64,000 nucleotides of DNA, from assembly GCA_951406725.2 (NCBI GenBank), contig OX597831.1:83886001-83950000 (forward strand), in the 5' to 3' direction. The translations under genes were made by a program, and so were the position numbers. The stretch's first letter is position 1. Each line of letters begins with the position of its first letter. The DNA comes from Octopus vulgaris. Lineage: Eukaryota. Below the pieces are notes generated by a model. The model did not search any database. It saw only the letters and a program-made list of their open reading frames with translations, and was not told the DNA's origin. Positions 4,006 through 59,725 of the stretch are shown piece after piece.

Positions 4006-6121
4006 TCTATGTTTGACTTTTGCTTTATATTTGTACAAGTTGGCTCCAAGTCTCACCCAGAGACCTCAAGAGACAACAGGGTTGGAAGTTCATGTTGTTG
4101 TTATGCCTAGTGTGCCATATATTTGGGGGGTGGGGATGTTGTACTAATGAATGTCTAAAAAGAAAAAAAAAAAAAAAAAAGGTTTTTTTTTTTTTTTTTT
4201 TTTTAAACCGAAAATTATGTTTGTTTTAAACCTTGAGATTACATAGAGAGTATTTTGCGCAGGATATGAGCAGTTCCCATGAGCACTATCTTTTGAACTT
4301 CTGCCATTTTTGGGTTTCCTGGTATCTGAGTTAGGTAGCTATCAGCCCCTTTTGCTATCATTCCCAGGGCACCTATGACAACAGGTATTGTTTTAGTCTT
4401 CAGCTTCCACATTTTGCTGATTTCTATTTCAAGATCTTTATATTTGCTCAGTTTTTGGTAGGTCTTGACAGATACGTTTATATCGATTGGGACAGTCATA
4501 TCAATGAGGAGGCATGTTCTTTGTTTGAAGTTTTTCAATATGATGTCTGGCCTATTTGCATCTATCTTCCTGTCAGTTTGAATGGTGAAGTTCCAGAGGA
4601 GTGAGATGTGGTCATTTTCAAGCACTGGGGGTGGTTTGTGTTCCCACCAGTTTTTTTCATGGGGCAAATCCAGGTTTTTACAGATTACCCAGTGAATATA
4701 TTGTGCAGCTCTATCGTGCCTGTTGAGATACTCTGTAGGCGCTAGAAGACTGCACTTGGAGACCACATGGTCAATGGTTTCATTTTGTTGCTTGCATACA
4801 CGACACGTTGGACTGCTTCTGATCTTTAATATGTTGGCCTGGTAGTTTCTTGTTGGTAGGCATTGATCTTGAGCTGCTATGATAAACCCCTCTGTTTCAG
4901 ATTTTAAGCCAGAGGCCATTAGCCATTGATGGGTCAGGGCTTTGTCGATATCTGCATTATTCGCTCTCTTTGGGTATTTGCCATAGAGAGGTTTTTCTTG
5001 CCATTTATTATTCAGAATATCTAAGGCCGCAGTTTTGGCACGGGTTTTCATGCGCCTAGCTTTTTCTGTGCTTGTTTCTTGTATATCTATCTCCGAAATT
5101 GGTTGTATTCGGAATTCACTTAGATATTCCTTTGCCTGTATTGTGACTGAGTATGATGCTTTCTTGTTTTCATGTTTTGAGACAAGTTTTAGCATCCAGT
5201 CCTCAGAGTTTTTCAGGTAGGTGTCTAGGCCAATTGTAGCAATCTTCATTGTTATTGCCAGTTGCAAAAGACCACGGCCTCCCTCTTTTCTTGGCAGATA
5301 GAGTCGTTCTGTATCTGCCTTAGGGTGGTGCATTCTATGCATTGTCAACAGTTTCCTTATTTTTCTGTCGAGCTGACATATTTCAGTAATTGACCAGTTA
5401 ACAATATTGAAACTGTAAGTCACGACTGGTATAGCTAATGCATTGATTGCTTCGATCCTGTTTCTTGCATTCAGCTCTGTCTTGAGTATTGCTCTCACTC
5501 TTCGATAGCATTCTCTCCTGATCCTTTCCTTCATCTCTGAATGCCTTATTCCGTTCCCTTCAATTATCCCTAGGTACTTGTAGCTCTCCGCTGGGTCTAG
5601 TTCTTTTATGACATTCTGTTGGTCAAGGTTAACGTTAGATGTTTCTGTCATTTTTCCTTTGATAAAGGTAGCCTTTGCACATTTATCGAGGCCGAATTGC
5701 ATTCTGATGTCGTCACTGAATTGTTTGACTATCGCTAGTAAGCCCTTGAGTTGTTGATCATTTTTTGCAAAAAGCTTTAAATCATCCATGTAAACGAGAT
5801 GATTTATATTTTTATCAAACATTTTATACCCGTACTGCGCGTCATTGAGCAGCTTTGAGAGAGGTATTAAGGATAAACAAAAGAGGAGTGGTGACAGTGA
5901 GTCACCCTGGAAAATGCCACACGAAATTTTTACATCACCAGCATTTAGGAATTCACTGTCACTGTTCAGAGTTAGTGTGGTTCTCCATGATCTCATACTT
6001 ACAGTCAAGAAGTTTCGCAGAGTTGGTGCTATCTTATACATTTCAAGGCATTTTCTAATCCAGCTATGTGGTAGGCTATCAAAAGCCTTTTTATAGTCTA
6101 TCCAGGCTATTGATAAGTTTT
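4006..6121 (-). mobile_element. Young 5'-truncated R4/Dong-clade non-LTR retrotransposon in (TAA)n
   Basis: Open RT-ZnF-RLE frame plus 3' UTR ending ..GTCAAACATAGA-(AAT)n; 5' junction fused to (AAT)n. Confidence 0.93.
4239..6041 (-). CDS. R4/Dong ORF, C-terminal ~600 aa: RT (GIFQGDSLSP, YMDDLKL, YKYLG), CCHC finger (CRVC..H..C), restriction-like endonuclease (RHD, RPD..IDM..K..KY)
   Basis: Motifs read in the ORF track. The frame stays open upstream to ~6120 (LSIAWIDYKKAFDS), so the ATG is internal. Confidence 0.92.
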   Translation of the reverse strand: MYKIAPTLRNFLTVSMRSWRTTLTLNSDSEFLNAGDVKISCGIFQGDSLSPLLFCLSLIPLSKLLNDAQYGYKMFDKNINHLVYMDDLKLFAKNDQQLKGLLAIVKQFSDDIRMQFGLDKCAKATFIKGKMTETSNVNLDQQNVIKELDPAESYKYLGIIEGNGIRHSEMKERIRRECYRRVRAILKTELNARNRIEAINALAIPVVTYSFNIVNWSITEICQLDRKIRKLLTMHRMHHPKADTERLYLPRKEGGRGLLQLAITMKIATIGLDTYLKNSEDWMLKLVSKHENKKASYSVTIQAKEYLSEFRIQPISEIDIQETSTEKARRMKTRAKTAALDILNNKWQEKPLYGKYPKRANNADIDKALTHQWLMASGLKSETEGFIIAAQDQCLPTRNYQANILKIRSSPTCRVCKQQNETIDHVVSKCSLLAPTEYLNRHDRAAQYIHWVICKNLDLPHEKNWWEHKPPPVLENDHISLLWNFTIQTDRKIDANRPDIILKNFKQRTCLLIDMTVPIDINVSVKTYQKLSKYKDLEIEISKMWKLKTKTIPVVIGALGMIAKGADSYLTQIPGNPKMAEVQKIVLMGTAHILRKILSM

Positions 6122-6126
6122 TATTA

Positions 6127-6160
<34 letters not shown>

Positions 6161-6183
6161 CATTATTATTATTATTATTATTA

Positions 6184-8733
<2,550 letters not shown>

Positions 8734-8810
8734 GTGTGTGTGTGCATGTGTATGTGTTTGTGCGTGCGTGTTTGTGTGAGTATGTATGTGTGCATATATA
8801 TATATGTATA

Positions 8811-9024
8811 TACTCTTTTGCTCTTTTACTTGTTTCAGTCATTTGACTGCGGTCATGCTGGAGCACCGCTTTTAGTCGAGCAAATCGACCCTCAGGACTT
8901 ATTCAAGGCTTTGGTCGGCCGGGGCTATAATAGAAGTCACTTCCCCAAAGTGCCATGCAATGGTACTGAACCCTGAACCGTGTGGCTGGTAAGCAAGCTA
9001 CTTACCACACAGCCACTCCTGCGC

Positions 9025-11364: not shown

Positions 11365-12247
11365 CATTATATATTAATAAATGAAATAAAACATATGCAT
11401 ATATATAAACATATATGTACGTACCTACCTCTACATGTACATATACACGCATATATGAGTACAGGACACCAAAGGGACGTCGAACACAAAGAGAAACGAA
11501 AACATAGACACAAACCAAAGGAACTGGACATTTTTTTAAAAACAACAAAAAATGGAGTACAGGACAATTAACACAAAGAAAAAACCCCTTCTTCAGTCGC
11601 TATGGTTTCATCTACTCTACGTTTCGAAGGCTAAAAGCGAGACGTATCTTCGACAAGAAACTTTCCTTCCTGCGAAAAGCAAATCAATTAAAATTCTGAG
11701 ATCTTTTCGCAGAGGGGTAAAAAATGGTAAAAAAATGGTAAAAAAACAGGACAGTAACGACAGTACAAAATATAAACAGTAAAAACAGGGAAAAACAAGA
11801 TAAGAAGGGCTGTTGACGCCGAACGAAAAAAGTATTGCAAATGCAGAATTTTTTGTGAACGACAGGGGAGCAGGAAGAATGTCGTCCAGTTACCTTGAAA
11901 GGCCAGGCCAGAAAGACAGTCAGAGCGGAAGTATCGTCGCGGGTGGACGACGGGAAGGGGGAGGTGGAGCAAGAGGAAGGGAGAGAAGAAGGGGAATGGC
12001 TGCGAGGAAACCATGAAGAATGGTGAGGGGGAGAGAGAGAGTGAAGAATGAAAGAGAGAGGAAGAGACAAGTTAAGTAGAGGAAAAAGAAAATCAAAGAA
12101 TAGGGATGGGACAGAAAGGTGAAGAGTGCGCGTCAGAGTTAATATCAAGACCAAAACTTGATATACAGAACAATCTTACTTAAGGGGGTGCGTGCGTTTT
12201 GTCATATAATATATTAATAAATGAAATAAAACATATGCATATATATA

Positions 12248-12256
<9 letters not shown>
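11365..12256 (-). mobile_element. ~840-bp non-autonomous PLE-type element (family X) with terminal direct repeat, carrying a permuted hammerhead
   Basis: ATATTAATAAATGAAATAAAACATATGCATATATATAAACATATAT at ~11370 and ~12210; CT-rich sense-strand tract; abuts (TA)n. Confidence 0.65.
11584..11718 (-). ncRNA. Candidate non-circularly permuted hammerhead ribozyme (family X)
   Basis: TACGT C TCGCT..CCTTC GAA ACGTA..AGCGA CTGAAGA: stem III TACGT/ACGTA, GUC site, stem I TCGCT/AGCGA. Confidence 0.65.
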
Positions 12257-26049: not shown

Positions 26050-26370
26050 TATATAACTTTACATTATTTACATTCGACAGATATTTGTCCTCATCTTGTT
26101 TGTTCTTAATACGTTTCGCCTGATACACCCTCCAGCCTTCTTCAGGTGTCTTGGCGAAATTTCGAACCTGGGTTCTCATTCTTAAGGCATTTTTCGATGT
26201 TGTTGTTGTTGTTGTTGTTATTAATGTCACTGCCTGGAATTCATCTCGGAATTTTGGGGTAGTAGTAACCACTACGCCATATGCCCGTGGGCATATGGCG
26301 GGTTGATTAAGAGCGCGGGCAACTAACCTCAACATTCCGAGTTCAATTCCAGGCAGTGACCTGAATAATG

Positions 26371-26429
<59 letters not shown>

Positions 26430-26625
26430 TATAACAACAACAACAACATCGTAAAATACCTTAGGAATGAGAATCCAGGTTCGAAATTTCCCCAAGATAC
26501 CTGATGAAGGCTGGGGGGTATATCAGCCGAAACGTTGTGTTAACAACAAACAAGATGAGGACAAATATCCGTCAATTGTAAATAATGTACATAATTCCTC
26601 ATCTCTTAAATATAGAACTGTATTA
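26050..26625. mobile_element. Head-to-head pair of tRNA-headed, hammerhead-containing SINE-like elements
   Basis: Minus copy 26050-26288 (A-box TGGCGTAGTGG) and plus copy 26289-26625 (B-box GAGTTCAATTCC). Each has an (AAT/AAC)n spacer, an HHR motif and a TA-rich 3' end. Confidence 0.75.
26496..26541 (+). ncRNA. Minimal type I hammerhead
   Basis: gatac CTGATGA A GGCTG..CAGCC GAA ACGT T gtgtt; mutated partner at 26108-26150 (-). Confidence 0.8.
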
Positions 26626-27736: not shown

Positions 27737-28088
27737 CGTGGCCAGCAGCCGTCGCGGCAAGACACATTTTTTCTCTCTCTCTCGCCCTAAGGCATTTTTC
27801 TAACGCCAGCTCAAAATTTATTCGTCCTGTCGAAAAGACGCTTGTCTGTGAAGTCCTGGTCTTGTTATTATTATTATTATCATTATTGTTTTTACGTATT
27901 TTTGTACACTTATTCGTGTTTTCCGTCCTTGTTTTGTATACATTCGAGGCTTTCTTCCAAGGAATCTAATGCGCTTGGCTTAGATTTTCCTTTGGGGCTG
28001 GCCAGATCGGAGCAATCTAAAGATTAATCAGCCGAAATTGCGAGGATGATCCGGTTCTTGACTGAATATTGAAGGCTTCGAATGTCCC
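27737..28088 (+). mobile_element. Family Y non-autonomous element (related to 44980-45485) with mutated permuted hammerhead at 27940-28085
   Basis: Shares GGCTGGCC..AAGATTAATCAGCCGAAATT..GATGATCCGGTTCTTGACTGAA with 45325-45397; flanked by (TA)n. Confidence 0.7.
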
Positions 28089-28198: not shown

Positions 28199-28261
28199 AT
28201 ATATATATACACACATACAGAGCTTTGCATTTTATATATATATATGCATATATATATATTT

Positions 28262-30175
28262 GGTCCACCGTTTCAACTTTGAACCAAGACCCCGCCGAGC
28301 CAACCTCACTCGGGCCGAATCCATCGCCCTTCGCCACCTCCGCCGTCGTGATGACATTGTCATCAAACCGGCGGACAAAGGCGGGGCGGTGGTAGTGTGG
28401 CGCGCGGACCTATACAGGGAGGAAGCGCTCAACCAGCTTCAAAATCCCCTCTTCTATCGCCTCCTCCCCTCCGATCCCACCTCCTCCTACCAACAGCGAG
28501 TGTCCTCCACCATCCACGACCTCATCTCCTCCTCCGCTCTCCCCCTCACCGCCACCAACCTCATCGTCCGCACACCCCGCACCTCCACCATCTACTTCCT
28601 TCCCAAGATCCATAAACCCTCTAACCCTGGCCGTCCCATAGTCTCTGCCTGTAATTGCCCCACTGAACTCATCTCCCTATACCTCGACCGCATCCTGTCC
28701 CCCTTAGTCGCAGCCCTCCCATCCCACATACACGACACCAACCACGCCCTCCGTCTCTTCAATTCCTTTTCCTTCCCTTCCAGCCCCTCACACCTCCTCT
28801 TCACCTTAGATGTAAAATCCCTGTACACAGTGATTCCCCACAATGACGGTCTCCTAGCCCTCCAACACTTCCTCGACCGTCGTCCCGACCCCACCCCCAG
28901 CACCCCCACCCTTCTCCGTTTGGCTGAGCTCGTCCTCACCCTCAATTGCTTCACGTTCGCCGGGGAAACGTACCAACAGGTGTCCGGGGTCGCGATGGGA
29001 ACTAGGATGGGCCCCAATTTCGCCAATCTCTTTCTTGGCTACATTGAGGCCCAAGTGTTCTCCCAGTTCTCTGGGCCGACCCCCGAACTATACGGTCGCT
29101 ATATCGACGACTGTGTAGGTGCCACCTCCCTTTCCCGGGAACTTCTCGGCCAATTCATCTCTTTCCTTTCCAACTTTCACCCCTCTCTTCAATTCACCTC
29201 CACCATCTCCAACACCTCTGTCAACTTCCTTGACATCTCTCTCCGCATCGATCACCCCTCCAGCTCTCTCACCACCACCGCCTTCTTTAAACCTACGGAT
29301 TCCCACCTCTATCTCAACTTCTCTTCCTCCCACCCCTTCCACACCAAACGAGCCATCCCCTACTCCCAGTTCCTCCGCCTCCGACGTTTGTGCAGCCGCG
29401 ACCAGGATTTCGAGACCCAATCTCAATACCTGGCCCGCATGTTCAGAACTCCGAGGTTACCCACCCACACTCCTCTCTGATGCCCTCACCCGCGCCCGTC
29501 GCATCGACCGCACTACCGCCTTGTCTCCTTCCCCCCGCCCACCCCCGCCCACCCCCCAACCGCACCCCCTTCCCCCTCCTTTTCCACCCCTCTACCCTAC
29601 CCCTTCGTCGCAAGATACTACGTGCCTTCCGTCGCCTCCAGCTTGATCCCACCACCCGCCCCATTTTCCCTAACCCACCCCTGTCCTCTTTCAAACGAGC
29701 CCGCAATCTGCGTGACCTCCTGGTCCACAGCACCCTCTCCCCTTCCCCCTCAGCCCCACACGGATCATTCCCTTGCTCTAGATCCCGCTGCAACACTTGC
29801 CCCTTCATCACCAACACCACCGCTGTCACCGGCTCCAACCTGCATACTGTACGCATTAGGCACTCTTTTACGTGCACCTCGTCTGGCCTTATTTACTGCA
29901 TTAAATGCAACCTATGCGGGATGCTGTATGTAGGTCAGACGGGACGCCGGTTGTCCGACCGTTTCACTGAACACTTGAGGGACGTTCGCCTACACTCTTT
30001 TTCTCCCGTCTCACGCCACTTCCGCTCGGCCGGCCATTCCCGAGATGACATCTCAGTGTTTGGTCTCGCCCCCCACAATGGTCGCCCACTTTCCAGGCTC
30101 CACTTGGAGCAACGCTACATCTTCACCCTACAAACTACCACCCCACACGGACTTAACACAGCCCCCTCCTCTTGA
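28262..30175 (+). pseudogene. PLE reverse transcriptase + GIY-YIG endonuclease, one frameshift near 29445
   Basis: [47 protein letters not shown]; Cys linker CSRSRCNTC; LIYCIKC..YVGQT..R..EH..LEQ..GLN. Confidence 0.93.
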
Positions 30176-33160
30176 GACCGTTTTTTTTTTTTTTTTTTTT
30201 TTCCGGACACACCACCCACACACACCCACCCACCTACCTCCCACACGCCTGTTCACACACACATACGTAGACCCATCTACGTACATACATTCACACATTT
30301 AATCACACACACTTACAGACACACATGCACATACACACACACATACATACATACACACACGCATACATACTTACACACACACACACACACACAGACATAC
30401 ATACACACATACACACACACATACATACGCACATACATACACACACACTCACACACACACACCGCACGTACATACTTCACACACACACACATGCACACAT
30501 ACATGTAGGCACATACATACATACATACCCACACATGCACACCCGTACACTGAATGCACACACACATACACCTTTTTGCATCCAGGCAGCCCCCCCTCTT
30601 TTCTGCTTTCCGGTTTTGGCTGATGGATCCTCGGTTCCCGCGTAGCGGGGCGTTCGAGGGCCTTTGCGCTCGCGCGCCTTGGCGCGCGCTGGGGGCTCGG
30701 TCGGCCCCTTTGGGCTTGCGTTGCACTGCTTGTGCGTTGTGTGCGTGAGCGCGCTTCGTGTGTGTGGGCTTGCTTCGGATGTGCGCTTGCGTATGTTTGC
30801 ATACATACCCACACACTCGCATGCATCCCTACCCACATACATCCACGCACACCTACTCACACACACACATACACACACACACATACCCGCACACACACAC
30901 ACATACATACATACACACACATACCCACTTCAGACATACACACACACAGACATACACCCATACACCCACACTCACACGCATACACACACACACATACACA
31001 CGCACACGTACACATACACACACACACACACCCACATACATACATTACACTTGTATACACACACTTACATTCATACACACACACACCTACACAGCCATAC
31101 CCTCACTCAGACACACACATCTACCTACACACACACAAACACACACTGACACACACCCATACATACATACATCTACACACTCACGCCTACACACATACAT
31201 ACACACATACATAAACACACACACATACACATACACACACATACGCACACACGCATATACTTATACACATGCACACACACACACATACATACATACACCC
31301 ATATACATACACACACACATACCTACATACTCCTATACGCACATACATACACACAGACATACACACATACACACTCACACAAACATACACACACACATAC
31401 TTACACACACACTCACCTGCACGCGCACACACATGCATGACAAACACTCATACACTCACACTCACATACGCACACACCAACATAAACACGCACACGCACA
31501 CACACACCTACACTCCCACACACATACACACGCACCTACATACACACACGCACGCATACACACATACATTACACACGTACACACACACCTACATACACAT
31601 GCATACACACACACACACAAACATGCACGGACACACCCAGACATACATACATACACCTATATACACACGCCTACACACCTACATACACACACATATACAC
31701 ACGCCCACACAGCTACATACACACACATACATACACACATACACGGACACACCCATACATACTTACATACATACACCTATACACACACGCCTACACACCT
31801 ACACACACACATGCACACACACACACATGTACGCACATACACACACATATACGCACACACATATATACCCACACACATGCACACACACACACATACGCAC
31901 ATACATGCACGCATGCACACGCGCACACCTACACGCATACACACACACACACGCACGTACACATACATACATACACACACGCATACATACACCCATACAC
32001 ATACATGCATCCTACACACACATACATACACACTCACACATACATACACACACACGCACTCACTCACACACCTGTATGTTCGCGCACACACATGCACATA
32101 CACACACTTCCCCACACCCACACGTACATACATACACACTCATACACACATACACACACACACACACACACGGACATACATCTATGCACACACATATATA
32201 CACACATACTCACATACATTCATCGGACACACTGCCACCCAGACATACACACAGACACACTCACACATCCACACGCACACATACGTACGCGCACACTCGC
32301 AGGCTCGCGCACACACGCGTTTGCGCCGGTTCGCGCACGCATGCGCCCCGCATGCACCTCGCCCTTGGACCCGACGAGACCTCCCGCCCGTTCCTGGGAT
32401 GCCGCTTGTCGTTGGGTTTTCCCACGCCCGTCTCCGCGGGACCACTCTTCCATCTTCCCCTCCGCTGGAGTCCTTTTCCTACCCCCCCCTTTTTTTCGTT
32501 ACACACACGCGCACACATATACACACATTGCTTAAACATATACATCACTCTTACACACATTCAATCTACTCGCCACTAATACTACCACGACACTGGACAC
32601 ACACACACACTACTACTCAACACACGCTGGCACGCTACATACGCCCCCACCCCTTCCCCTCCCTCCCTTCCTCCTTCCTCCCTTTTCTCACTACTGACCT
32701 TTGTCTGCTATGCTGCTGCTATGCTGACCACCGTCTCGCCCTACCTCACACGCCTACACACAGACGCACACACTAACACTTACATATATTTTTTGTTTTT
32801 TTACCTCGCCTCACACACACACATACACACACGCACACGCACACACTCACACATACACACACATCTGTTGCGTTACCAACCTTGTCTCCACTCTTTTGCC
32901 TTTAAAAACCCACTTTGCTCTTGTTATCGTAAACATCCGCCTTTCACCATGTGCTACTCCTAACACCAGCCGTTTTTTTCTCTATCTCCGTTGCCCGCTC
33001 CGGGATCTTTCTTTCCTCTCTCTTCCTTCTTTATGTTTCCGACGAAGAGCTCCGCTCGAAACGTCATACCTCCCTGCTTCCATTTCCTGAGCGCCTATTA
33101 ATAATAATACTGTAATTGTTCCCTTGTTGTTGTTTTTTTGTTTCCCGTTTGGATTAAAAT
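28262..33160 (+). mobile_element. 5'-truncated Penelope-like element (Neptune-type) with CA-rich 3' region and pLTR, inserted in (TA)n
   Basis: RT+GIY-YIG ORF; the terminal ~390 bp recurs at 49188-49575 (-); HHR-like motif at 33035-33069. Confidence 0.85.
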
Positions 33161-37157: not shown

Positions 37158-37452
37158 TATTATATATATACACACACAGAGACAAACACAGAGGTAAATG
37201 TGCACAAATTCAAATATATATATATACATATATACATACATACGTATTTGTGTATGTACGTACATATACATACGTATATATATATATATATCACTCTATT
37301 TGTGTGTATATATGTGTATATCTATCTGAATGTATACACATGAATATATATATACGTATATTTGTATAGAAATATGCACGTTTTCATACAAATATACATA
37401 CAATATATAGATATACATATATAGACAGAGAGAGAAGAGAGAGATATGTATG

Positions 37453-37479
<27 letters not shown>

Positions 37480-37483
<4 letters not shown>

Positions 37484-40400
37484 AAATAATTAAAGGGCGG
37501 GCAGCAGGCTGCCTCGCCGCATACCGGAGGAATTAGAAATGGCAGTCAAAGACTGTTTTTTCCATTTTCTATAAGTGGATTTTCCAAATACGACGAACCC
37601 TGCGGTTCACATACGCAAAAAACGGAGTAGCAAATAAACGAAACCAATCTCTTACCGTTAATGATGAACATGTTTCTAGATCACAAGCACGAAAATAGCT
37701 TGATTTCCTTTATCAACACCATATTCGATAGATTTAGCAAATGCCACAGGCCCTCACTTCTGACCAAGCGACATCAGATAGTGGGGGGAGGTGTGCATAT
37801 GTTAAAACTAAGTAATGACTGAGAACGTAAATTTTCCCTCCAAAAATTCTGCCGTGTGTGCCGCCTGGCCGATCGCAATGGAATAAGAAATCCACATGGT
37901 AATACAATAAAAATGGTAAATAATTTTTCAGTGGTTTTTCATATAACCAACAATTATTTACCGGCAAAATTCCGGTATGTAAATATGACAAATTCATCGT
38001 CAGGAACTTCTGGAAAGTTCAGTATATAGTGAAAATAATTAAAGGGCGGGCAGCAGGCTGCCTCGCCGCATACCGGAGGAATTAGAAATGGCAGTCAAAG
38101 ACTGTTTTTTCCATTTTCTATAAGTGGATTTTCCAAATACGACGAACCCTGCGGTTCACATACGCAAAAAACGGAGTAGCAAATAAACGAAACCAATCTC
38201 TTACCGTTAATGATGAACATGTTTCTAGATCACAAGCACGAAAATAGCTTGATTTCCTTTATCAACACCATATTCGATAGATTTAGCAAATGCCACAGGC
38301 CCTCACTTCTGACCAAGCGACATCAGATAGTGGGGGAGGTGTGCATATGTTAAAACTAAGTAATGACTGAGAACGTAAATTTTCCCTCCAAAAATTCTGC
38401 CGTGTGCGCCGCCTGGCCGATCGCAATGGAATAAGAAGTCCACATGGTAATACAATAAAATGGTAAATAATTTTTCAGTGGTTTTTCATATAACCAACAA
38501 TTATTTACCGGCAAAATTCCGGTATGTAAATATGACAAATTCATCGTCAGGAACTTCTGGAAAGTTCAGTATATAGTGAAAATAATTAAAGGGCGGGCAG
38601 CAGGCTGCCTCGCCGCATACCGGAGGAATTAGAAATGGCAGTCAAAGACTGTTTTTTCCATCTTCTATAAGTGGATTTTCCAAATACGACGAACCCTGCG
38701 GTTCACATACGCAAAAAACGGAGTAGCAAATAAACGAAACCAATCTCTTACCGTTAATGATGAACATGTTTCTAGATCACAAGCACGAAAATAGCTTGAT
38801 TTCCTTTATCAACACCATATTCGATAGATTTAGCAAATGCCACAGGCCCTCACTTCTGACCAAGCGACATCAGATAGTGGGGGGAGGTGTGCATATGTTA
38901 AAACTAAGTAATGACTGAGAACGTAAATTTTCCCTCCAAAAATTCTGCCGTGTGTGCCGCCTGGCCGATCGCAATGGAATAAGAAATCCACATGGTAATA
39001 CAATAAAAATGGTAAATAATTTTTCAGTGGTTTTTCATATAACCAACAATTATTTACCGGCAAAATTCCGGTATGTAAATATGACAAATTCATCGTCAGG
39101 AACTTCTGGAAAGTTCAGTATATAGTGAAAATAATTAAAGGGCGGGCAGCAGGCTGCCTCGCCGCATACCGGAGGAATTAGAAATGGCAGTCAAAGACTG
39201 TTTTTTCCATTTTCTATAAGTGGATTTTCCAAATACGACGAACCCTGCGGTTCACATACGCAAAAAACGGAGTAGCAAATAAACGAAACCAATCTCTTAC
39301 CGTTAATGATGAACATGTTTCTAGATCACAAGCACGAAAATAGCTTGATTTCCTTTATCAACACCATATTCGATAGATTTAGCAAATGCCACAGGCCCTC
39401 ACTTCTGACCAAGCGACATCAGATAGTGGGGGGAGGTGTGCATATGTTAAAACTAAGTAATGACTGAGAACGTAAATTTTCCCTCCAAAAATTCTGCCGT
39501 GTGTGCCGCCTGGCCGATCGCAATGGAATAAGAAGTCCACATGGTAATACAATAAAAATGGTAAATAATTTTTCAGTGGTTTTTCATATAACCAACAATT
39601 ATTTACCGGCAAAATTCCGGTATGTAACTATGACAAATTCATCGTCAGGAACTTCTGGAAAGTTCAGTATATAGTGAAAATAATTAAAGGGCGGGCAGCA
39701 GGCTGCCTCGCCGCATACCGGAGGAATTAGAAATGGCAGTCAAAGACTGTTTTTTCCATTTTCTATAAGTGGATTTTCCAAATACGACGAACCCTGCGGT
39801 TCACATACGCAAAAAACGGAGTAGCAAATAAACGAAACCAATCTCTTACCGTTAATGATGAACATGTTTCTAGATCACAAGCACGAAAATAGCTTGATTT
39901 CCTTTATCAACACCATATTCGATAGATTTAGCAAATGCCACAGGCCCTCACTTCTGACCAAGCGACATCAGATAGTGGGGGGAGGTGTGCATATGTTAAA
40001 ACTAAGTAATGACTGAGAACGTAAATTTTCCCTCCAAAAATTCTGCCGTGTGCGCCGCCTGGCCGATCGCAATGGAATAAGAAGTCCACATGGTAATACA
40101 ATAAAAATGGTAAATAATTTTTCAGTGGTTTTTCATATAACCAACAATTATTTACCGGCAAAATTCCGGTATGTAAATATGACAAATTCATCGTCAGGAA
40201 CTTCTGGAAAGTTCAGTATATAGTGAAAATAATTAAAGGGCGGGCAGCAGGCTGCCTCGCCGCATACCGGAGGAATTAGAAATGGCAGTCAAAGACTGTT
40301 TTTTCCATTTTCTATAAGTGGATTTTCCAAATACGACGAACCCTGCGGTTCACATACGCAAAAAACGGAGTAGCAAATAAGCGAAACCAATCTCTTACCG

Positions 40401-41502
40401 TTAATGATGAACATGTTTCTAGATCACAAGCACGAAAATAGCTTGATTTCCTTTATCAACACCATATTCGATAGATTTAGCAAATGCCACAGGCCCTCAC
40501 TTCTGACCAAGCGACATCAGATAGTGGGGGGAGGTGTGCATATGTTAAAACTAAGTAATGACTGAGAACGTAAATTTTCCCTCCAAAAATTCTGCCGTGT
40601 GCGCCGCCTGGCCGATCGCAATGGAATAAGAAGTCCACATGGTAATACAATAAAAGTGGTAAATAATTTTTCAGTGGTTTTTCATATAACCAACAATTAT
40701 TTACCGGCAAAATTCCGGTATGTAAATATGACAAATTCATCGTCAGGAACTTCTGGAAAGTTCAGTATATAGTGAAAATAAAGGGCGGGCAGCAGGCTGC
40801 CTCGCCGCATACCGGAGGAATTAGAAATGGCAGTCAAAGACTGTTTTTTCCATTTTCTATAAGTGGATTTTCCAAATACGACGAACCCTGCGGTTCACAT
40901 ACGCAAAAAACGGAGTAGCAAATAAACGAAACCAATCTCTTACCGTTAATGATGAACATGTTTCTAGATCACAAGCACGAAAATAGCTTGATTTCCTTTA
41001 TCAACACCATATTCGATAGATTTAGCAAATGCCACAGGCCCTCACTTCTGACCAAGCGACATCAGATAGTGGGGGGAGGTGTGCATATGTTAAAACTAAG
41101 TAATGACTGAGAACGTAAATTTTCCCTCCAAAAATTCTGCCGTGTGCGCCGCCTGGCCGATCGCAATGGAATAAGAAGTCCACATGGTAATACAATAAAA
41201 ATGGTAAATAATTTTTCAGTGGTTTTTCATATAACCAACAATTATTTACCGGCAAAATTCCGGTATGTAAATATGACAAATTCATCGTCAGGAACTTCTG
41301 GAAAGTTCAGTATATAGTGAAAATAATTAAAGGGCGGGCAGCAGGCTGCCTCGCCGCATACCATGTGGACTTCTTATTCCATTGCGATCGGCCAGGCGGC
41401 GCACACGGCAGAATTTTTGGAGGGAAAATTTACGTTCTCAGTCATTACTTAGTTTTAACATATGCACACCTCCCCCCACTATCTGATGTCGCTTGGTCAG
41501 AA
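37480..41502 (-). mobile_element. Retrozyme-like tandem array: 7 x ~549 bp + 45-bp partial + inverted segment 41362-41502, within (TA)n
   Basis: Unit starts 37480, 38029, 38576, 39125, 39674, 40223, 40772, 41317; near-identical units; one HHR variant per unit. Confidence 0.9.
37661..37722 (-). ncRNA. Type I hammerhead, U3-A8 core variant (also at 38210, 38757, 39306, 39855, 40404, 40949)
   Basis: atggtg TTGATAA a-GGA-aat-CAAGC..GCTTG-tga-TCT-a GAA ACATGT T catcat. Confidence 0.7.
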
Positions 41503-41798: not shown

Positions 41799-41803
<5 letters not shown>

Positions 41804-42275
41804 ATATTTCGGAATGGTCATATTGCCAGTTTAGCCAATAAAAACACACGCACTATATATTTGGTGTTATTTTGCTTCAGTGATATTTATTTTTTACATT
41901 AATCTTAATCTTATTTCGGCCAAAGTTCTTTCGTCACACTCCTGTGACCGCATCAGTGGTCCTTTGTTTTCTTCTCACTTACTTGTGTCTCTCCTTACTA
42001 ACCGTCAGCCATTTTGTATTTCTATTGTATGTCTTCATTTGCGCATGCTTATATCTCTATGTGCGTCTATGTTTATTTAGTGTGTGGGGGGGATGTCTGT
42101 AATATTTGTATCTTCTGTTTATATACATTCTTGTAATTTGTATTTTGTTTTTGTTGTTGTTGCTTTTGTTCTAATTTTGTTCATGTGTTTACATCCACCC
42201 ATTATTATCATTACATATGCTTGTATGTATGTATAACAACAATATTAGTAATAATAATAATAAATCTAATCGAAA

Positions 42276-42317
<42 letters not shown>

Positions 42318-44353
42318 GAAAAGAATATACATATACATATATATATATACATACATATACATATACATATACATATATATATATACATACATATACACAT
42401 ACATATACATATATATGCACATATACACACATATATACACATATAGATATTCATTTCTATTTCTTTAATTACCTGTGTATTTATTATGTTTGCAGGATCC
42501 ACTATTGTCATATGTTGTGGTGTGCGCTATTGCTCCATTCTAGTTTTCTATTCAGGCTAGGTTTATTTTCTATTATATGTGTAGCTTCTGTAATTTGTCT
42601 AATTGTTGCATCTGTTCTATGTGTTGACAATATCTTAATCTCTATGTTATTGATTGATCCCCCGTGTTCTTGTTCGGCGTGTTGGTACAGAATCGATGAG
42701 CTTTTACCTTCCTTGAGTTGTCTCCAATGTTCATTCACCCGCTCACCAATGCTTCTTGCAGTTTCCCCTACGTATGTTACTGTCTTGTTACTGCATCGTC
42801 CCTCTATACATCTTATACTATAGACCACATTTCTGGCTTTACAGTTCGTTTGTGGGCTAAATCTACATACAGTGCAATAGTTATCCGTACAGAGAGTTCT
42901 ACTAAAAGGATAGCTTCTACCAATTATAGATCTGATAGGGTTGCCTGGCTTTTCAACAACCTTAATTCTTAGTTTAAGTTTATCTAGGGTCCTTCTAAAG
43001 CGGTACGCTAGTTCACCTCCAGGGGTGGTGTCAACGAACATGACACTCTGGTATTTATGGCTATCATACCAAGAGTTGGCCTTCCCTATTTTCTTTTTTG
43101 TCCTTTCTATAGTGTTCCATGACTTGTTCCTATAGAGTGGGCAAATCCCATTCCTATCATTACATAATATATTATCAAATTTCTTCATGGCTCCTTTGTA
43201 TACTCTGATCCTTTCTTTATGGCTGTAACCTGAGAACTGCATGCGGTGAATGAAATACTGTATGTGTCTCTTTAATTCTGTAGGCTCGCACATGCGTGAC
43301 ACATTTCTCATTATTCTGATGAGGTCTGCCATCAAAATATTGAATTTGGCATTGCCCGCAATGGCTGTGTTCCGGTGGATCAGGTATTTTGAGGCCATAG
43401 GTTTTGCATAGTATGAATGAAGGATTTGGGTTTTATTTTTCACAATTTCTAGCCAGAGTTCAGTGTCTAGTACTGGTAGTCTATGGTTGGGGTGTTTAGT
43501 GGGGTAGTCTATTGTGACCTTAATACTCTGGTGGATGGAGTTAGCTATTTGCTGGATGCTCTCTATAGTATTAGTTTCTATTACTATATCAACAGTACCC
43601 TCTTGTGGGGGTGCCTTTACTACTATATTGATATCATCAACATAGCGAGAGTACATGTTTACGAGTATGGATTTCTGCAGTAGGCATTCTTTAAGCCTTC
43701 TGTCCCACCATACCATGAAGAGGTTGGCCACATCACCAGCGATACTAACACCGATGGCTGCCCCCACGTCCTGGGCATATATTTTATTATTAAATTTAAA
43801 TGTGTGGCCTTTTAGGGTAACTCTTATACTAGCTCCTAGTGCATGTGCGATCATTTTCTTTACCTGATGGACATTTGCGGGGCTCCGTATGGCTCTGGTC
43901 CATCCGCGCCATCTTTCTATATGTGTCTTCCTAGCCATAGAAGTAATTGTAGGCGGTCTACCTCTTAAACATCTACTGGGGCAGAAACTACTAAGATTAT
44001 GTTTATCTAAGTATTCACTATTATATGTCAGTCTAAGTAGGAGGCCCAGTTCTTCTGTGTCGACATTACAGAACTCCAACTGGCTCTCGTTGATCATCTC
44101 CACGCACTTCTCCACTGCAAAATCTACGTCAATCGATGGGTATAGGGATACCACATCCATGCTACCTACTATACATCCTGTCAAGTCACAAGTTTTGTTA
44201 CAGTCACTGATCCTGCTTAGGAGAACTTTGGCCGAAATAAGATTAAGATTAATGTAAAAAATAAATATCACTGAAGCAAAATAACACCAAATATATAGTG
44301 CGTGTGTTTTTATTGGCTAAACTGGCAATATGACCATTCCGAAATATAACAAT
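41799..44353 (-). mobile_element. 5'-truncated Penelope-like element with inverted pLTR segment (44221-44353)
   Basis: 44221-44353 is the reverse complement of ~41797-41929; 3' end in (TA)n; solo pLTR at ~56628-56855. Confidence 0.9.
42508..44220 (-). CDS. PLE RT + GIY-YIG endonuclease, uninterrupted but 5'-truncated
   Basis: SMDVVSLYPSI, GAAIGVSIAGDVANLFM, RYVDDI, LPVLD, Cys linker, VVYSIRC..YVGETAR..R..EH..TEA..LN. The first ~17 aa of the listed ORF come from the inverted pLTR. Confidence 0.92.
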   Translation of the reverse strand, partial: LSRISDCNKTCDLTGCIVGSMDVVSLYPSIDVDFAVEKCVEMINESQLEFCNVDTEELGLLLRLTYNSEYLDKHNLSSFCPSRCLRGRPPTITSMARKTHIERWRGWTRAIRSPANVHQVKKMIAHALGASIRVTLKGHTFKFNNKIYAQDVGAAIGVSIAGDVANLFMVWWDRRLKECLLQKSILVNMYSRYVDDINIVVKAPPQEGTVDIVIETNTIESIQQIANSIHQSIKVTIDYPTKHPNHRLPVLDTELWLEIVKNKTQILHSYYAKPMASKYLIHRNTAIAGNAKFNILMADLIRIMRNVSRMCEPTELKRHIQYFIHRMQFSGYSHKERIRVYKGAMKKFDNILCNDRNGICPLYRNKSWNTIERTKKKIGKANSWYDSHKYQSVMFVDTTPGGELAYRFRRTLDKLKLRIKVVEKPGNPIRSIIGRSYPFSRTLCTDNYCTVCRFSPQTNCKARNVVYSIRCIEGRCSNKTVTYVGETARSIGERVNEHWRQLKEGKSSSILYQHAEQEHGGSINNIEIKILSTHRTDATIRQITEATHIIENKPSLNRKLEWSNSAHHNI

Positions 44354-44692: not shown

Positions 44693-44979
44693 TTTGTCTC
44701 TCTCTCTCTCACTTTTACTTGATCTGTCCCCTTCTCTCTCTTTTCTCTCTACTCATCCTCTTTTTCTCTTCTCTTTCCTCTGATTCTTTGGTCTACTCTT
44801 CCCCGACCCTTCCAGTTCTTTGTCTCGCTCTGCACTCACAGGTCAATCTTCGACACCCATCCCTTCTCCTCTCTGATTCCTTCTTTCTCTCTCTTCTCTC
44901 CCCTTGTTGCGTTTGTCCCTCCTCTCTCTCTCTCTTCTCTCTCTTTCTTCCTTCCTTTGCTTCTCTTTCTTTTCTTTTC

Positions 44980-45485
44980 TCTCTTCTCTGTCACGTGACC
45001 GCTGGCCGAAATCTGCCTCTCAGCTTCCCACCAGCGACGTGTTAACATCGTTGTTTTTCATCCGCCGCCAAGGCATCGCCGATAAGGCTCCTTTCCAATG
45101 CGCCAGAGAAAATTTGTTTGCTTGTTATCAGTCGTAAGACACTTGTTGTTGTTTTCACCGTTAATGCTTCTGTATTTCATGTTTCTGTATTCCATTATTG
45201 TTTTTTGCCTTTTATATTCGTCCCTTTTGCTGTCCCGGTGTTCGTATGCATTCGATCCTTCTTCCAGGAAATCTACGCTCCCAGCTTAGTTTTTCTAATG
45301 CTCGTTGCTTAGTTTTTCTTGGAGGGCTGGCCGTGATCTAGTAATCTCAAGATTAATCAGCCGAAATTACTACGATGATCCGGTTCTTGACTGAAGACTG
45401 AGGGTTTCGAATGTCCTGTCCGTGTTTATTGTATCGTCTTCTAAGAGTTATACGTTCTTGTCCATGTTGTATTTTTCTACATACC
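44980..45485 (+). mobile_element. Family Y element preceded by a CT-rich tract (~44700-44990), 3' end at (TA)n
   Basis: Homology to 27737-28088; contains the intact permuted hammerhead. Confidence 0.7.
45249..45413 (+). ncRNA. Candidate non-circularly permuted hammerhead ribozyme (family Y)
   Basis: TAGTAAT C TCAAGA ttaat CAGCC GAA ATTACTA..TCTTGA CTGAAGA: 7-bp stem III, AUC site, 6-bp stem I. Confidence 0.7.
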
Positions 45486-45489
45486 TTAA

Positions 45490-45520
<31 letters not shown>

Positions 45521-57254: not shown

Positions 57255-59210
57255 TAATAATAATAATAATAATAATTGTGTACAGTGCTCAGGTGCACTA
57301 CAACTCATCTAAAGTGTATATATAATCAGGTGTAGTTTCGGCGGATTTCGGAAAGCATGAGGGCCTTAAAAGATGCAGTGTCATGGCAGTCAACAACTGA
57401 CGCAGGCAGTTTATTCCATGCTTCAGCAACTCTGAGCGTGAAAAAATGTTTCCGAAAGTCATGGGAGCTGTATTGTTTTCTGACTTTGTAGGCATGTCCA
57501 CGTGTGTTAGACACATGGAGATCAAAAAGGTGTTCAGTGTTGTTGTTGGTGAGGTGGTTGATAACTTTGTGGGTGTTTACCAAGTCCGTCGCCAAACGCC
57601 GGAGCTTCAGTGAATCCATGCCCAGGGAAACAAGGCGCTCAGAATATGGTAGGTGTCTGATCGAGGGTATGCGTTTGGTTGCACGTCTCTGGACAGATTC
57701 CAGGAGGTCAATGTTCTGTGCAAGATAGGGGTTCCAAACTGATGATGCGAATTCCAAGTGTGGTCGTACCATAGCTGTATACAGTTTTAAATAGATGGCT
57801 GGAGAGCGGCTAACAAAAGACCTGCTGAGTGATGCCAAGACACCCTCGGCCTTCCTGACAATCTTAGAGATATGCTTTGACCAACGCAAATCACTGCTGA
57901 CAGTGATGCCTAGGTCACGCTCGCAAGAGGATTTCTTGATATCAGTGTTGTGGAGGGAGTAAGTGAACGCAGGGTTTTTTCTCCCAAAATGCATGGTGGT
58001 ACACTTGTCCACAGCCAGTTTCAGTTGCCAGTCTGTGATCCATTGCTGCATTGTGTCTAGGTCTGATTGCAGGAAAGAGTTGTAGACATCAGGATCTGTC
58101 CTCTTGATTTCAAGGTACAGCTTGATGTCGTCTGCATATTTCAATACTGTGGCATTCTTTAAATTGGCATCTATGTCGTTAATGTATGCCACAAACAAGA
58201 GGGGACCAAGGACAGATCCCTGTGGTACACCCGATGACATCTCATATGGTGTAGAGTGCTGTCCTAGAACTGTGACTACCTCCTTTCGGCTGAGGATGAA
58301 GGATTTCAACCAGTTAAAAAGGTCATCCCCCACACCCATTGCAGAGAGTTTCACCATAAGCCTTTTGTGTGGTACAGAGTTGAAAGCCTTAGCAAAGTCA
58401 AGGTAGACAACATCCACCCATGAGCCACTGTCAGTAATCTGAGTAATGTCCTCAAGGAACTCGACAAGCTGGTCACTGCAGCTGGAGTTAGGGACAAATC
58501 CATATTGTGAGGGTCGGATGAGACTGTGAGAGCTTCAGAAGTTCCAGAGTGTTTCTCTGACACACGATTCCATCAGTTTTGCAATACAGCTAGTGAGACT
58601 GACTGGGCGATAGTTGACAGGTGATGTGCGGTCGCCCTTTTTGAACAGAGGAATGACACTGGCAGTTTTCCACTGCTCCGGAGTAGCACCATTGTTGAGA
58701 CAGTACTGGAAGAAAATAGAAAGCTGGTGTAAAAGGAAGTGCCTGCCACGTTTGAGAAGCAGGTATGTAACTCCATCGAGACCAGGGGAGGCATAGTTGC
58801 GCTTATTTTGAAGGTGACGTCGCAGCATTGCAGGTGTAAATTCCATAGTTGTTATGGAGTTTGCTGTTAGTGATGGTGAAGATGGTACATTTTGACTTTC
58901 AACAGTGAATATGTTTGCATAGCACTCGGCAATGAGTTCTGCGCATTCCTTGGGGTCGTCAGTGATCTGGTTTGTGTGAGGGTTGCGAAGAGGGCCCACT
59001 GGAGAGTGAGGTCTCTGCTTTGAGTGCACATATTTCCAGAAAACCTTGCTGTCAGGATTGGCTGCTATGCACTGTTCAAATTCAAGCACTGCTTTTTTTG
59101 TCACTTGCTTGAGATGGTTGGAGGATTTATTCCGCTTCTTCCTGTTGGTGTCTGATTTATGCAACCTGTATTCCCGTTCAGCAGTCCGACGTTCCCTCCT
59201 GGCAAGTCGG
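57255..59210 (-). mobile_element. 5'-truncated CR1-group LINE, RT with frameshift near 58535, (ATT)n tail
   Basis: SPGLDG, PLFKKGDR..NYRPVSL, VYLDFAKAF, SGVPQGSVLGP, YADD, VRPHLEFASSVWNP, LESVQRRATK. Confidence 0.92.
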
Positions 59211-59725
59211 ACCGTGAAGTTTCCCAAATTGCCCTTTTGGGGCGGTTCTTCTTTAGGTTTACCGTCGTGCATTAAGAATTAATTCTGGGAATTGTTCCAA
59301 ATTATACTAAATGATGTAGTAGCATTTTCTCTTTTTGTTTTTTTCTTTGTTGTTTTATTTTCATTTTTTATTTCTATGAGATACTGCGATACTCATATCT
59401 CGTGTTTCCTTTTGCTCCTCGATAAAAACAATGAAATCTAATAAAATAAAGTAATGACAATCGAGAATAACAATTTGATAAAAACCTTCATTTTTACCAC
59501 CATCATCACCAAAACCATCACCACCTACTCCAACACCAACACCTCCATCACCACCGCTGCTGCGACAGCTGCCGCCGCCGCCGCTGCCACTTGCACTATC
59601 ATTGTCATGATCACCAACATCATCATCATCATTACCATTCATAGCTAACAGAGATATTACATTGTCGCTCGACTTGCTAAAAATAACCGCGCAGTTTCTC
59701 TTTCGTATTTCATACTCTACTGTAG

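Follow-up and report, generated by a model that had tools for sequence, protein, structure and literature searches.

The present analysis suggests that a noncoding mobile element of Octopus vulgaris carries a self-cleaving hammerhead ribozyme with a standard catalytic core in reverse-cycle wiring, predicted to fold as a single molecule, a reading to which we give a probability of roughly two in three on the sequence comparisons set out below. The motif lies on the forward strand of the window, that is, the whole stretch of 64,000 nt that was analyzed. It appears to be a genuine and conserved hammerhead that is probably active; self-cleavage at 45346 in some form is very likely, and self-cleavage there as a monomer fairly likely. 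On balance, and somewhat more cautiously, we also favor a broader proposition: that this wiring, with three linkers closed and the chain opened at A9/G10.1, is active and ancient in one branch of the Naiads, a group of Penelope-like elements (PLEs), in ctenophores, cnidarians, and molluscs, where it would occur in thousands of copies per genome, outside the six-permutation scheme, with its cut site recorded in the 5′ ends of copies.

Every hammerhead part named in the initial annotation is present where it had been placed (Table 1), and the accompanying proposal of a reverse block order that calls for a pseudoknotted or strand-swapped fold stands. Along the strand the core blocks run S→G→C, where S denotes stem III-UH-stem I, G stem II-GAAA-stem III, and C stem I-CUGAnGA. 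Positions follow the hammerhead numbering scheme, in which G5, G8, and G12 have catalytic roles. The annotation had overlooked a helix of 8-9 bp, the joining helix, which connects the far ends of stems I and II. The minimum-energy fold, computed with a method blind to pseudoknots, yields P0, P0b, and stem II (z -2.57).

Table 1. Parts of the proposed split hammerhead, its host element, and related copies in the window
Feature	Position	Strand	Remarks
F1 copy	44693..45487	+	795 nt; 5′-truncated, fixed 3′ end, flanked by TA microsatellites, without a coding frame
P0 closing helix, 5′ strand	45249..45261	+	partner 45400-45413
P0b side hairpin	45262..45324	+	strands 45262-45271/45315-45324; abuts P0 and stem II with no unpaired linker
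Stem II 5′ strand GGCTG	45325..45329	+	G10.1 = 45325; detached from CUGAAGA
Joining ("I") helix, 5′ strand	45330..45338	+	one bulged base; connects far ends of stems I/II, compare type SGC
Stem III 5′ strand	45339..45345	+	U16.1 = 45345; partner 45366-45372
C17 (AUC triplet)	45346	+	predicted cut 3′ of C17, based on hammerhead analogy and the 5′-end step
Stem I 3′ strand	45347..45352	+	position 1.1 = 45347; partner 45385-45390
Linker from stem I to stem II, 5 nt	45353..45357	+	
Stem II 3′ strand CAGCC	45358..45362	+	C11.1 = 45362
G12-A13-A14 and stem III 3′ strand	45363..45372	+	GAAA 45363-45366; A15.1 = 45366
4-nt bulge and joining helix, 3′ strand	45373..45384	+	helix strand 45377-45384
Stem I 5′ strand and CUGAAGA core	45385..45397	+	CUGAAGA 45391-45397; G5 45393, G8 45396, A9 45397
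2-nt linker and P0 3′ strand	45398..45413	+	P0 strand 45400-45413
3′ tail up to fixed end	45414..45487	+	short TA tract next in tandem copies; likely priming site
F2 copy, same fold	27918..28088	+	damaged in core (G8) and stem I; most F2 copies intact
F5 monomer, same fold, different stem II	11370..12250	-	predicted C17 at 11641

The split-core fold occurs in nine families of the octopus genome (F1-F9), its Naiad included, the families beyond those in the window coming from the flanks of fetched loci; 16 representatives, nine genomic and seven metagenomic with 12 distinct pre-GAAA strands, were compared. Stem II takes its 5′ strand from ahead of the cleavage site, so that the break in the chain falls between A9 and G10.1. 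In the proposed fold the elements would follow one another in the order stem II 5′ strand, joining helix, S block, G block, joining-helix partner, and stem I-CUGAnGA, and the chain would enter and leave between A9 and G10.1 via two stacked helices, P0 and P0b, making the motif a circular permutation of the published type-SGC hammerhead that is opened inside block C. Closed into a ring, it would correspond to a type-SGC fold with a joining helix, the link from that helix to block S being closed, and the pair tables suggest that A9/G10.1 is a fourth opening point of the reverse cycle. When the core strands are constrained to stay open, folding places P0 0-2 nt after A9 and P0b directly against G10.1 in most representatives (F3, F6, F7, and F9 show less clean P0/P0b folding), and the distance from G10.1 to U16.1 is 21-22 nt in 13 of 16, a constancy that fits, as expected, a defined fold. 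The family F8 (L176-L200) shows no tie to TA repeats and has a short monomer; the G-run that connects P0b with stem II is unusually variable, the remainder being conserved.

Because the joining helix continues into stem III along each of its strands, a monomer needs a sharp bend: this helix would have to fold back at the bulge, which a strand-swapped dimer would avoid. It is possible, if unlikely in our view, that the same core, stems, and cut are assembled between molecules, the apical loop (C17, the stem I strand, the stem II strand, and GAA) of one copy docking on the basal junction of a second, either within a tandem transcript or in a dimer. Such an arrangement no longer needs the tight bend and agrees with the partial tandems in which F1 occurs, with the reported activity of minimal PLE hammerheads as dimers (PMC4209133, accessible text), and with the comment of Eckert et al. 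that it is not obvious how joining-helix-to-stem-III connectivity would fit the crystal structure (PMC10085705). However, the fixed 21-22 nt path and a hinge bulge of 4-10 nt in most families suit a folded-back monomer, and short type-SGC constructs cleaved during transcription (PMC10085705, where dimer dependence is unreported in the accessible text). Of the two, the single-molecule fold is considered the more likely.

As had been proposed from the sequence of the window, the host is a Penelope-type nonautonomous element. F1 is a noncoding element of ~870 nt that targets TA repeats and is partly tandem (monomer ~830-877 nt). Its copies share one end point in a TA microsatellite, are 5′-truncated, and form partial tandems with periods of 830-877 nt, so that the (TA)n target, the fixed 3′ end, and the partial tandem (pseudo-LTR) copies of Naiad-type elements are all found in F1; 141 nt separate the motif from the fixed 3′ end. 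A search with F1 returned 1110 candidates, which are not copy numbers, and 16 of the 40 scored, including the window copy, are fully identical over 195-196 nt; among the matches listed for a query with the F1 tail, 40 of 40 are identical, all on the first two contigs. Sequence like that of F1/F2 is also present in contigs of four sequencing runs, an observation of presence only. No RT-like or long frame was found upstream of F1-F4 in 90 loci. Both F1 and F5 look young, with many identical copies, yet only decayed Naiad frames were found in the genome.

The 5′ ends of copies bear directly on the predicted cut. Thirty F1 loci chosen by tail identity alone gave 23 resolved ends after one locus at an N gap, one rearranged locus, and five internal tandem copies were dropped. 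Eleven of these ends lie at 0 to +17 from position 1.1, four of them exactly at 1.1; one lies in -26..-1 and 11 lie further upstream, so that 12 of 23 extend past the cut. The resulting step (11 ends in 0..+25 vs 1 in -26..-1) has a p value of 0.006, and the peak at exactly 0 is significant in this set (p 0.007 after 0/+1 were merged). A second set was obtained with a pattern consisting of a TA repeat and then the stem II-GAAA word within 30 nt, the 100 rows listed corresponding by hand count to 25 places. Among these 25 places listed, 23 begin at 0..+10, six of them clearly at 0 and a seventh ambiguously so, and the other 2 at -20..-1; the step is again evident (p 6e-9, with a pattern that slightly favors starts close to its anchor), and the excess exactly at 1.1 is not significant (p 0.23, 0/+1 merged). 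The step, not the peak at 0, is thus the robust signal of the copy 5′ ends. On the simplest reading, many templates began at 45347, as cleaved RNA would, and the step may be taken as an indirect sign of cleavage in vivo; longer copies would need uncut or circular templates, as retrozymes are proposed to in the accessible text of PMC7229834. Three independent F1 tandem insertions (L012, L019, and L332) begin at -19, within the stem II 5′ strand. The lack of an AG before 45347 and a pyrimidine as the first base speak against a splice acceptor or start site behind the step, although this is a weak argument. A cross-family survey of by-catch 5′ ends double-counted copies between related families and was left out of the evidence.

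A structured 3′ signal that binds or stalls the reverse transcriptase, retaining hammerhead-like letters without cutting, could also leave a step, through polymerase stalling or TA microhomology. This we hold to be improbable. Many copies read through the site, starts at -19 recur, and starts at +3..+17 often use AT microhomology, all of which such a signal would accommodate. Stalling, however, would be expected at the 3′ foot of helices rather than at position 1.1, and AT/TA microhomology of equal quality immediately before the cut is nearly unused (2 of the 25 places listed). In addition, each of the 16 representatives retains every catalytic letter despite unrelated stem sequences. Self-cleavage by the hammerhead core stays our preferred account of the step.

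Comparison of the families identifies the strand that forms stem II. Own upstream windows supply at least five Watson-Crick stem II pairs for 12 of the 12 distinct strands, a count that is favored because the representatives were picked as intact copies, vs 3 of 132 when upstream windows are swapped in from other families; the strand within 20 nt 3′ of A9 supplies 5 pairs in 0 of 12, the window copy giving 1. Stem II takes five different sequences across the nine families, the core letters (UH, CGAAA, and CUGAnGA) are present in all 16 representatives, and stems I and III are paired with many differing base pairs under core-only anchoring. The hammerhead features G10.1-C11.1 and A15.1-U16.1, together with covarying stems I, II, and III abutting the core, are all found. 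Selection weighs less on a second test, for which the eight metagenomic Naiad tails with a core were aligned by sequence only: pairing reaches 100% in stem II, where 5 of 6 pairs differ on both sides, 98.6% in the joining helix, where 5 of 9 do, and 92.5% in stems I and III. The covariation score of this alignment was matched by 0 of 500 shuffles, a count that is not a probability because the rows are related, and slid controls drop to 34-51% paired. Core conservation and covariation across copies, whose absence, alongside a lack of cleavage, the initial annotation had named as refuting its proposal, are both present. Among scanned F8 copies, 15 of 22 are without a contiguous 4-bp stem II, mostly by one mismatch, the query itself being such a variant.

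Stem II had at first been left ambiguous between CTGA/TCAG pairs and a multi-helix junction; the junction, with GGCTG/CAGCC and block C split at A9/G10.1, has held, and the CTGA/TCAG pairing, lost in F3 and F4 and without counterpart in the other families, has been rejected, as has a later 3′ GGYT strand pairing with AGCC (0 of 12 reach 5 pairs 3′ of A9). An ordinary type-SGC hammerhead drawing stem II from one of these strands 3′ of CUGAAGA, with the upstream GGCTG a decoy, is accordingly very improbable: CTGA/TCAG-type pairs can form in F1/F2 and a 4-bp 3′ alternative exists in F1-F3, but F4 has neither, the 3′ strand is already used by P0, and five pairs are reached upstream in every distinct strand and 3′ of A9 in none.

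A descriptor was built on the succession of stem II strand, joining helix, S block, G block, joining-helix partner, and C block. In its strict form, with at least 5 bp in each of stems I, II, and III, a joining helix of at least 5, and C11.1, it matched the window twice (+45346 and -11641), whereas 300 dinucleotide-shuffled windows scanned on both strands gave 0 matches. Chance complementarity in a repeat, to which the 5 matches of a loose descriptor in 300 dinucleotide-shuffled windows might point, is refuted by the covariation across nine genomic families and 8 metagenomic loci and disfavored by these strict counts. The motif escapes standard hammerhead models, as had been anticipated: Rfam gave zero matches at gathering score over the whole window and a single, chance-level match on 45150-45500 (E 8.5), and both a match to the type I/II/III hammerhead models and their C-G-S cyclic order are absent from the motif.

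Naiads have been reported without a canonical hammerhead, "HHR_half_core" cases being flagged, the Octopus consensus among them, with no fold proposed in the accessible text (PMC8557442). The split order is seen by eye at 10 places in snippets of that paper's supplement: the element listed before Naiad_Mley, three near-identical coral-type elements, two from Octopus, and four others. Several nematode Naiad tails in the snippets have the C-before-G order instead. These snippets surround four core words, two being incomplete, and do not amount to a survey. A motif taken from the published Octopus Naiad has 398 exact matches in the genome vs 0 for controls. The split motif of the genome's own, Octopus-type Naiad, F7, lies ~1 kb downstream of decayed Naiad RT ends; the F7 tail has the same fold as F1, with no F1-F7 sequence match beyond the fold. 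No intact Naiad frame was found in the genome, the longest open frame among 105 and 42 matches being 292 aa; no Naiad RT was found in viral contigs; and no autonomous partner of F1 emerged from the frames upstream of F1-F4 or the genomic Naiad RT.

In metagenomes, the fold is present on the sense strand in 8 of 80 Naiad-RT loci (3 of 40 clusters), seven by descriptor and L243 by eye with a mismatch at 1.1-2.1; downstream sequence reaches at least 1250 nt in 33 of the 80 and at least 500 nt in 52. With 8 of 80 loci only, the fold marks some Naiad lineages, not all. The motif follows the stop codon of the Naiad ORF by 79-201 nt on the sense strand (seven loci measured), and two carriers, L220 and L235, encode an ORF with N-terminal GIY-YIG, CxC, and RT and count as intact GIY-YIG-RT Naiads. 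The Naiad ORF (N-terminal GIY-YIG, CxC, and RT) is absent from F1 itself, and we infer that F1 is mobilized by a Naiad. Rfam found nothing on 20 of the 80 metagenomic Naiad loci, and no twister was found in the motif-less Naiads tested. Separately, Naiad ORFs of ~1300 aa carry a C-terminal ubiquitin-hydrolase after the RT (UCH, PF00443, E 1e-33; L220:267-4187, L228:305-4201, L235:298-4188, and L274:2-1762), an extension seen in all 8 motif-bearing metagenomic loci and Pfam-checked in 3; the words "ubiquitin" and "peptidase" are absent from the main text of PMC8557442 as far as it is accessible. The contig ends of L220 and L228 repeat their starts, with the ribozyme motif just before the repeat, consistent with tandem or circular Naiad units of ~4.5 kb.

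The proposed mechanism would place the motif near the 3′ end (pseudo-LTR) of Naiad-type PLEs and of noncoding derivatives such as F1. Tandem or read-through transcripts would be cut after C17, and a reverse transcriptase supplied in trans would prime within TA repeats, at the fixed 3′ end. Cut, linear RNA would give rise to ~141-nt copies ending at the cut, and uncut or re-ligated circular monomers to longer, partly tandem copies.

The window holds further hammerhead-like and retroelement sequences. A minimal type I hammerhead family at 26490-26545 (+) and 26100-26150 (-) has the stem II and the bases before GAAA of F1-F4, either by shared origin or by coincidence. At 28245-33160 (+) lies a PLE with an RT followed by a GIY-YIG-like region and a long CA-rich insert, containing a minimal hammerhead-like motif with a variant core (approximately 33035-33070). 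A second PLE at 41800-44350 (-), RT-like then GIY-YIG-like by eye, with terminal repeats and no Pfam match, has a degenerate hammerhead-like motif at ~41950. These neighboring C-terminal-endonuclease PLEs were rejected as partners of F1, as they carry other hammerhead-like motifs. Eight tandem copies of a 549-bp unit occupy 37361-41497, without a match to Rfam or the descriptor, and pieces of non-LTR retrotransposon reverse-transcriptase frames lie at 4239-8902 (-) and 57326-59278 (-).

Hammerheads have been viewed as six orders of three unbreakable blocks, noncircular orders being regarded as rarities limited to viroid-like RNAs and a handful of microbial contigs. Since one block is broken here, every current descriptor misses the motif, despite its abundance in an animal genome. 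If the proposed reading is true, the motif would be the first non-circularly permuted ribozyme that is both abundant in genomes and eukaryotic, and part of the puzzle that Naiads lack hammerheads would be explained: a concrete fold is offered for the Naiad "half-core" hammerheads, and the claim of ribozyme-free Naiad spread is reopened. The 5′-end step would provide genomic evidence on the role of the ribozyme in the Penelope-like life cycle, called unclear in the accessible text of PMC8557442, and the A9/G10.1 opening would be a natural attachment point for engineered ribozyme switches.

Several known systems invite comparison, each judged from the accessible parts of the papers cited. Naiads (Craig, Yushenova, Rodriguez & Arkhipova 2021, PMC8557442) resemble F1 in (TA)n targeting, partial tandems, and 5′ truncation, but F1 codes for nothing. 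Non-LTR retrozymes (Cervera & de la Pena 2020, PMC7229834; Li, Clavereau & Pollet 2026, preprint, 10.64898/2026.07.22.740005) share noncoding, tandem-prone monomers with one hammerhead per unit, and PLEs are presumed to mobilize them via RNA in linear and circular form. Retrozymes carry type I hammerheads, in contrast to the reverse-cycle, core-opened form of the octopus monomers (700-880 nt), which are mostly dispersed and truncated. The minimal type I hammerheads of canonical PLE pseudo-LTRs (Cervera & de la Pena 2014, PMC4209133) occupy the same position in the element, and the extra base between A9 and stem II that is common and tolerated in them falls at the point where the octopus motif is opened; theirs, however, follow the C-G-S order with a vestigial stem III, whereas stem III of the octopus motif has 4-7 bp and the order is reversed.

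The closest relative is the type-SGC hammerhead (HRIMA-1 and SGC variants; Eckert, Friedrich, Weinberg & Weinberg 2023, PMC10085705), to which the octopus motif is alike in its S-G-C order, all core letters, short stem I-II linker, joining helix, and two core pseudoknots. The initial annotation had asked whether its reverse order matched a described class: the order is indeed noncircular, but as type SGC it is already published, so the noncircular order alone is not new. The 5-nt linker falls within the type-SGC range of 0-8 nt, the joining helix is present and covarying, and in vitro cleavage is documented for type-SGC RNAs that share this linker and joining helix (PMC10085705). That paper treats block C as unbreakable, its descriptors requiring ≤1-2 inserted nt after A9, and SGC-1 has one extra base between A9 and G10.1. 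In the octopus motif, by contrast, the 5′ strand of stem II lies upstream, so that block C is split and no stem II strand follows within 0-2 nt of A9; both joining-helix strands continue into stem III, and P0/P0b are added. The 583 SGC sequences all come from metatranscriptomes, none from genomes of known organisms (PMC10085705); the octopus motif is high-copy animal genomic DNA. A literature search, with most subscription papers outside its reach, turned up no account of retroelements with a hammerhead that is split or in SGC order. As far as the accessible literature goes, the split-core wiring thus appears to be new, a predicted ribozyme that would function like type SGC while departing from it in the unbroken block C.
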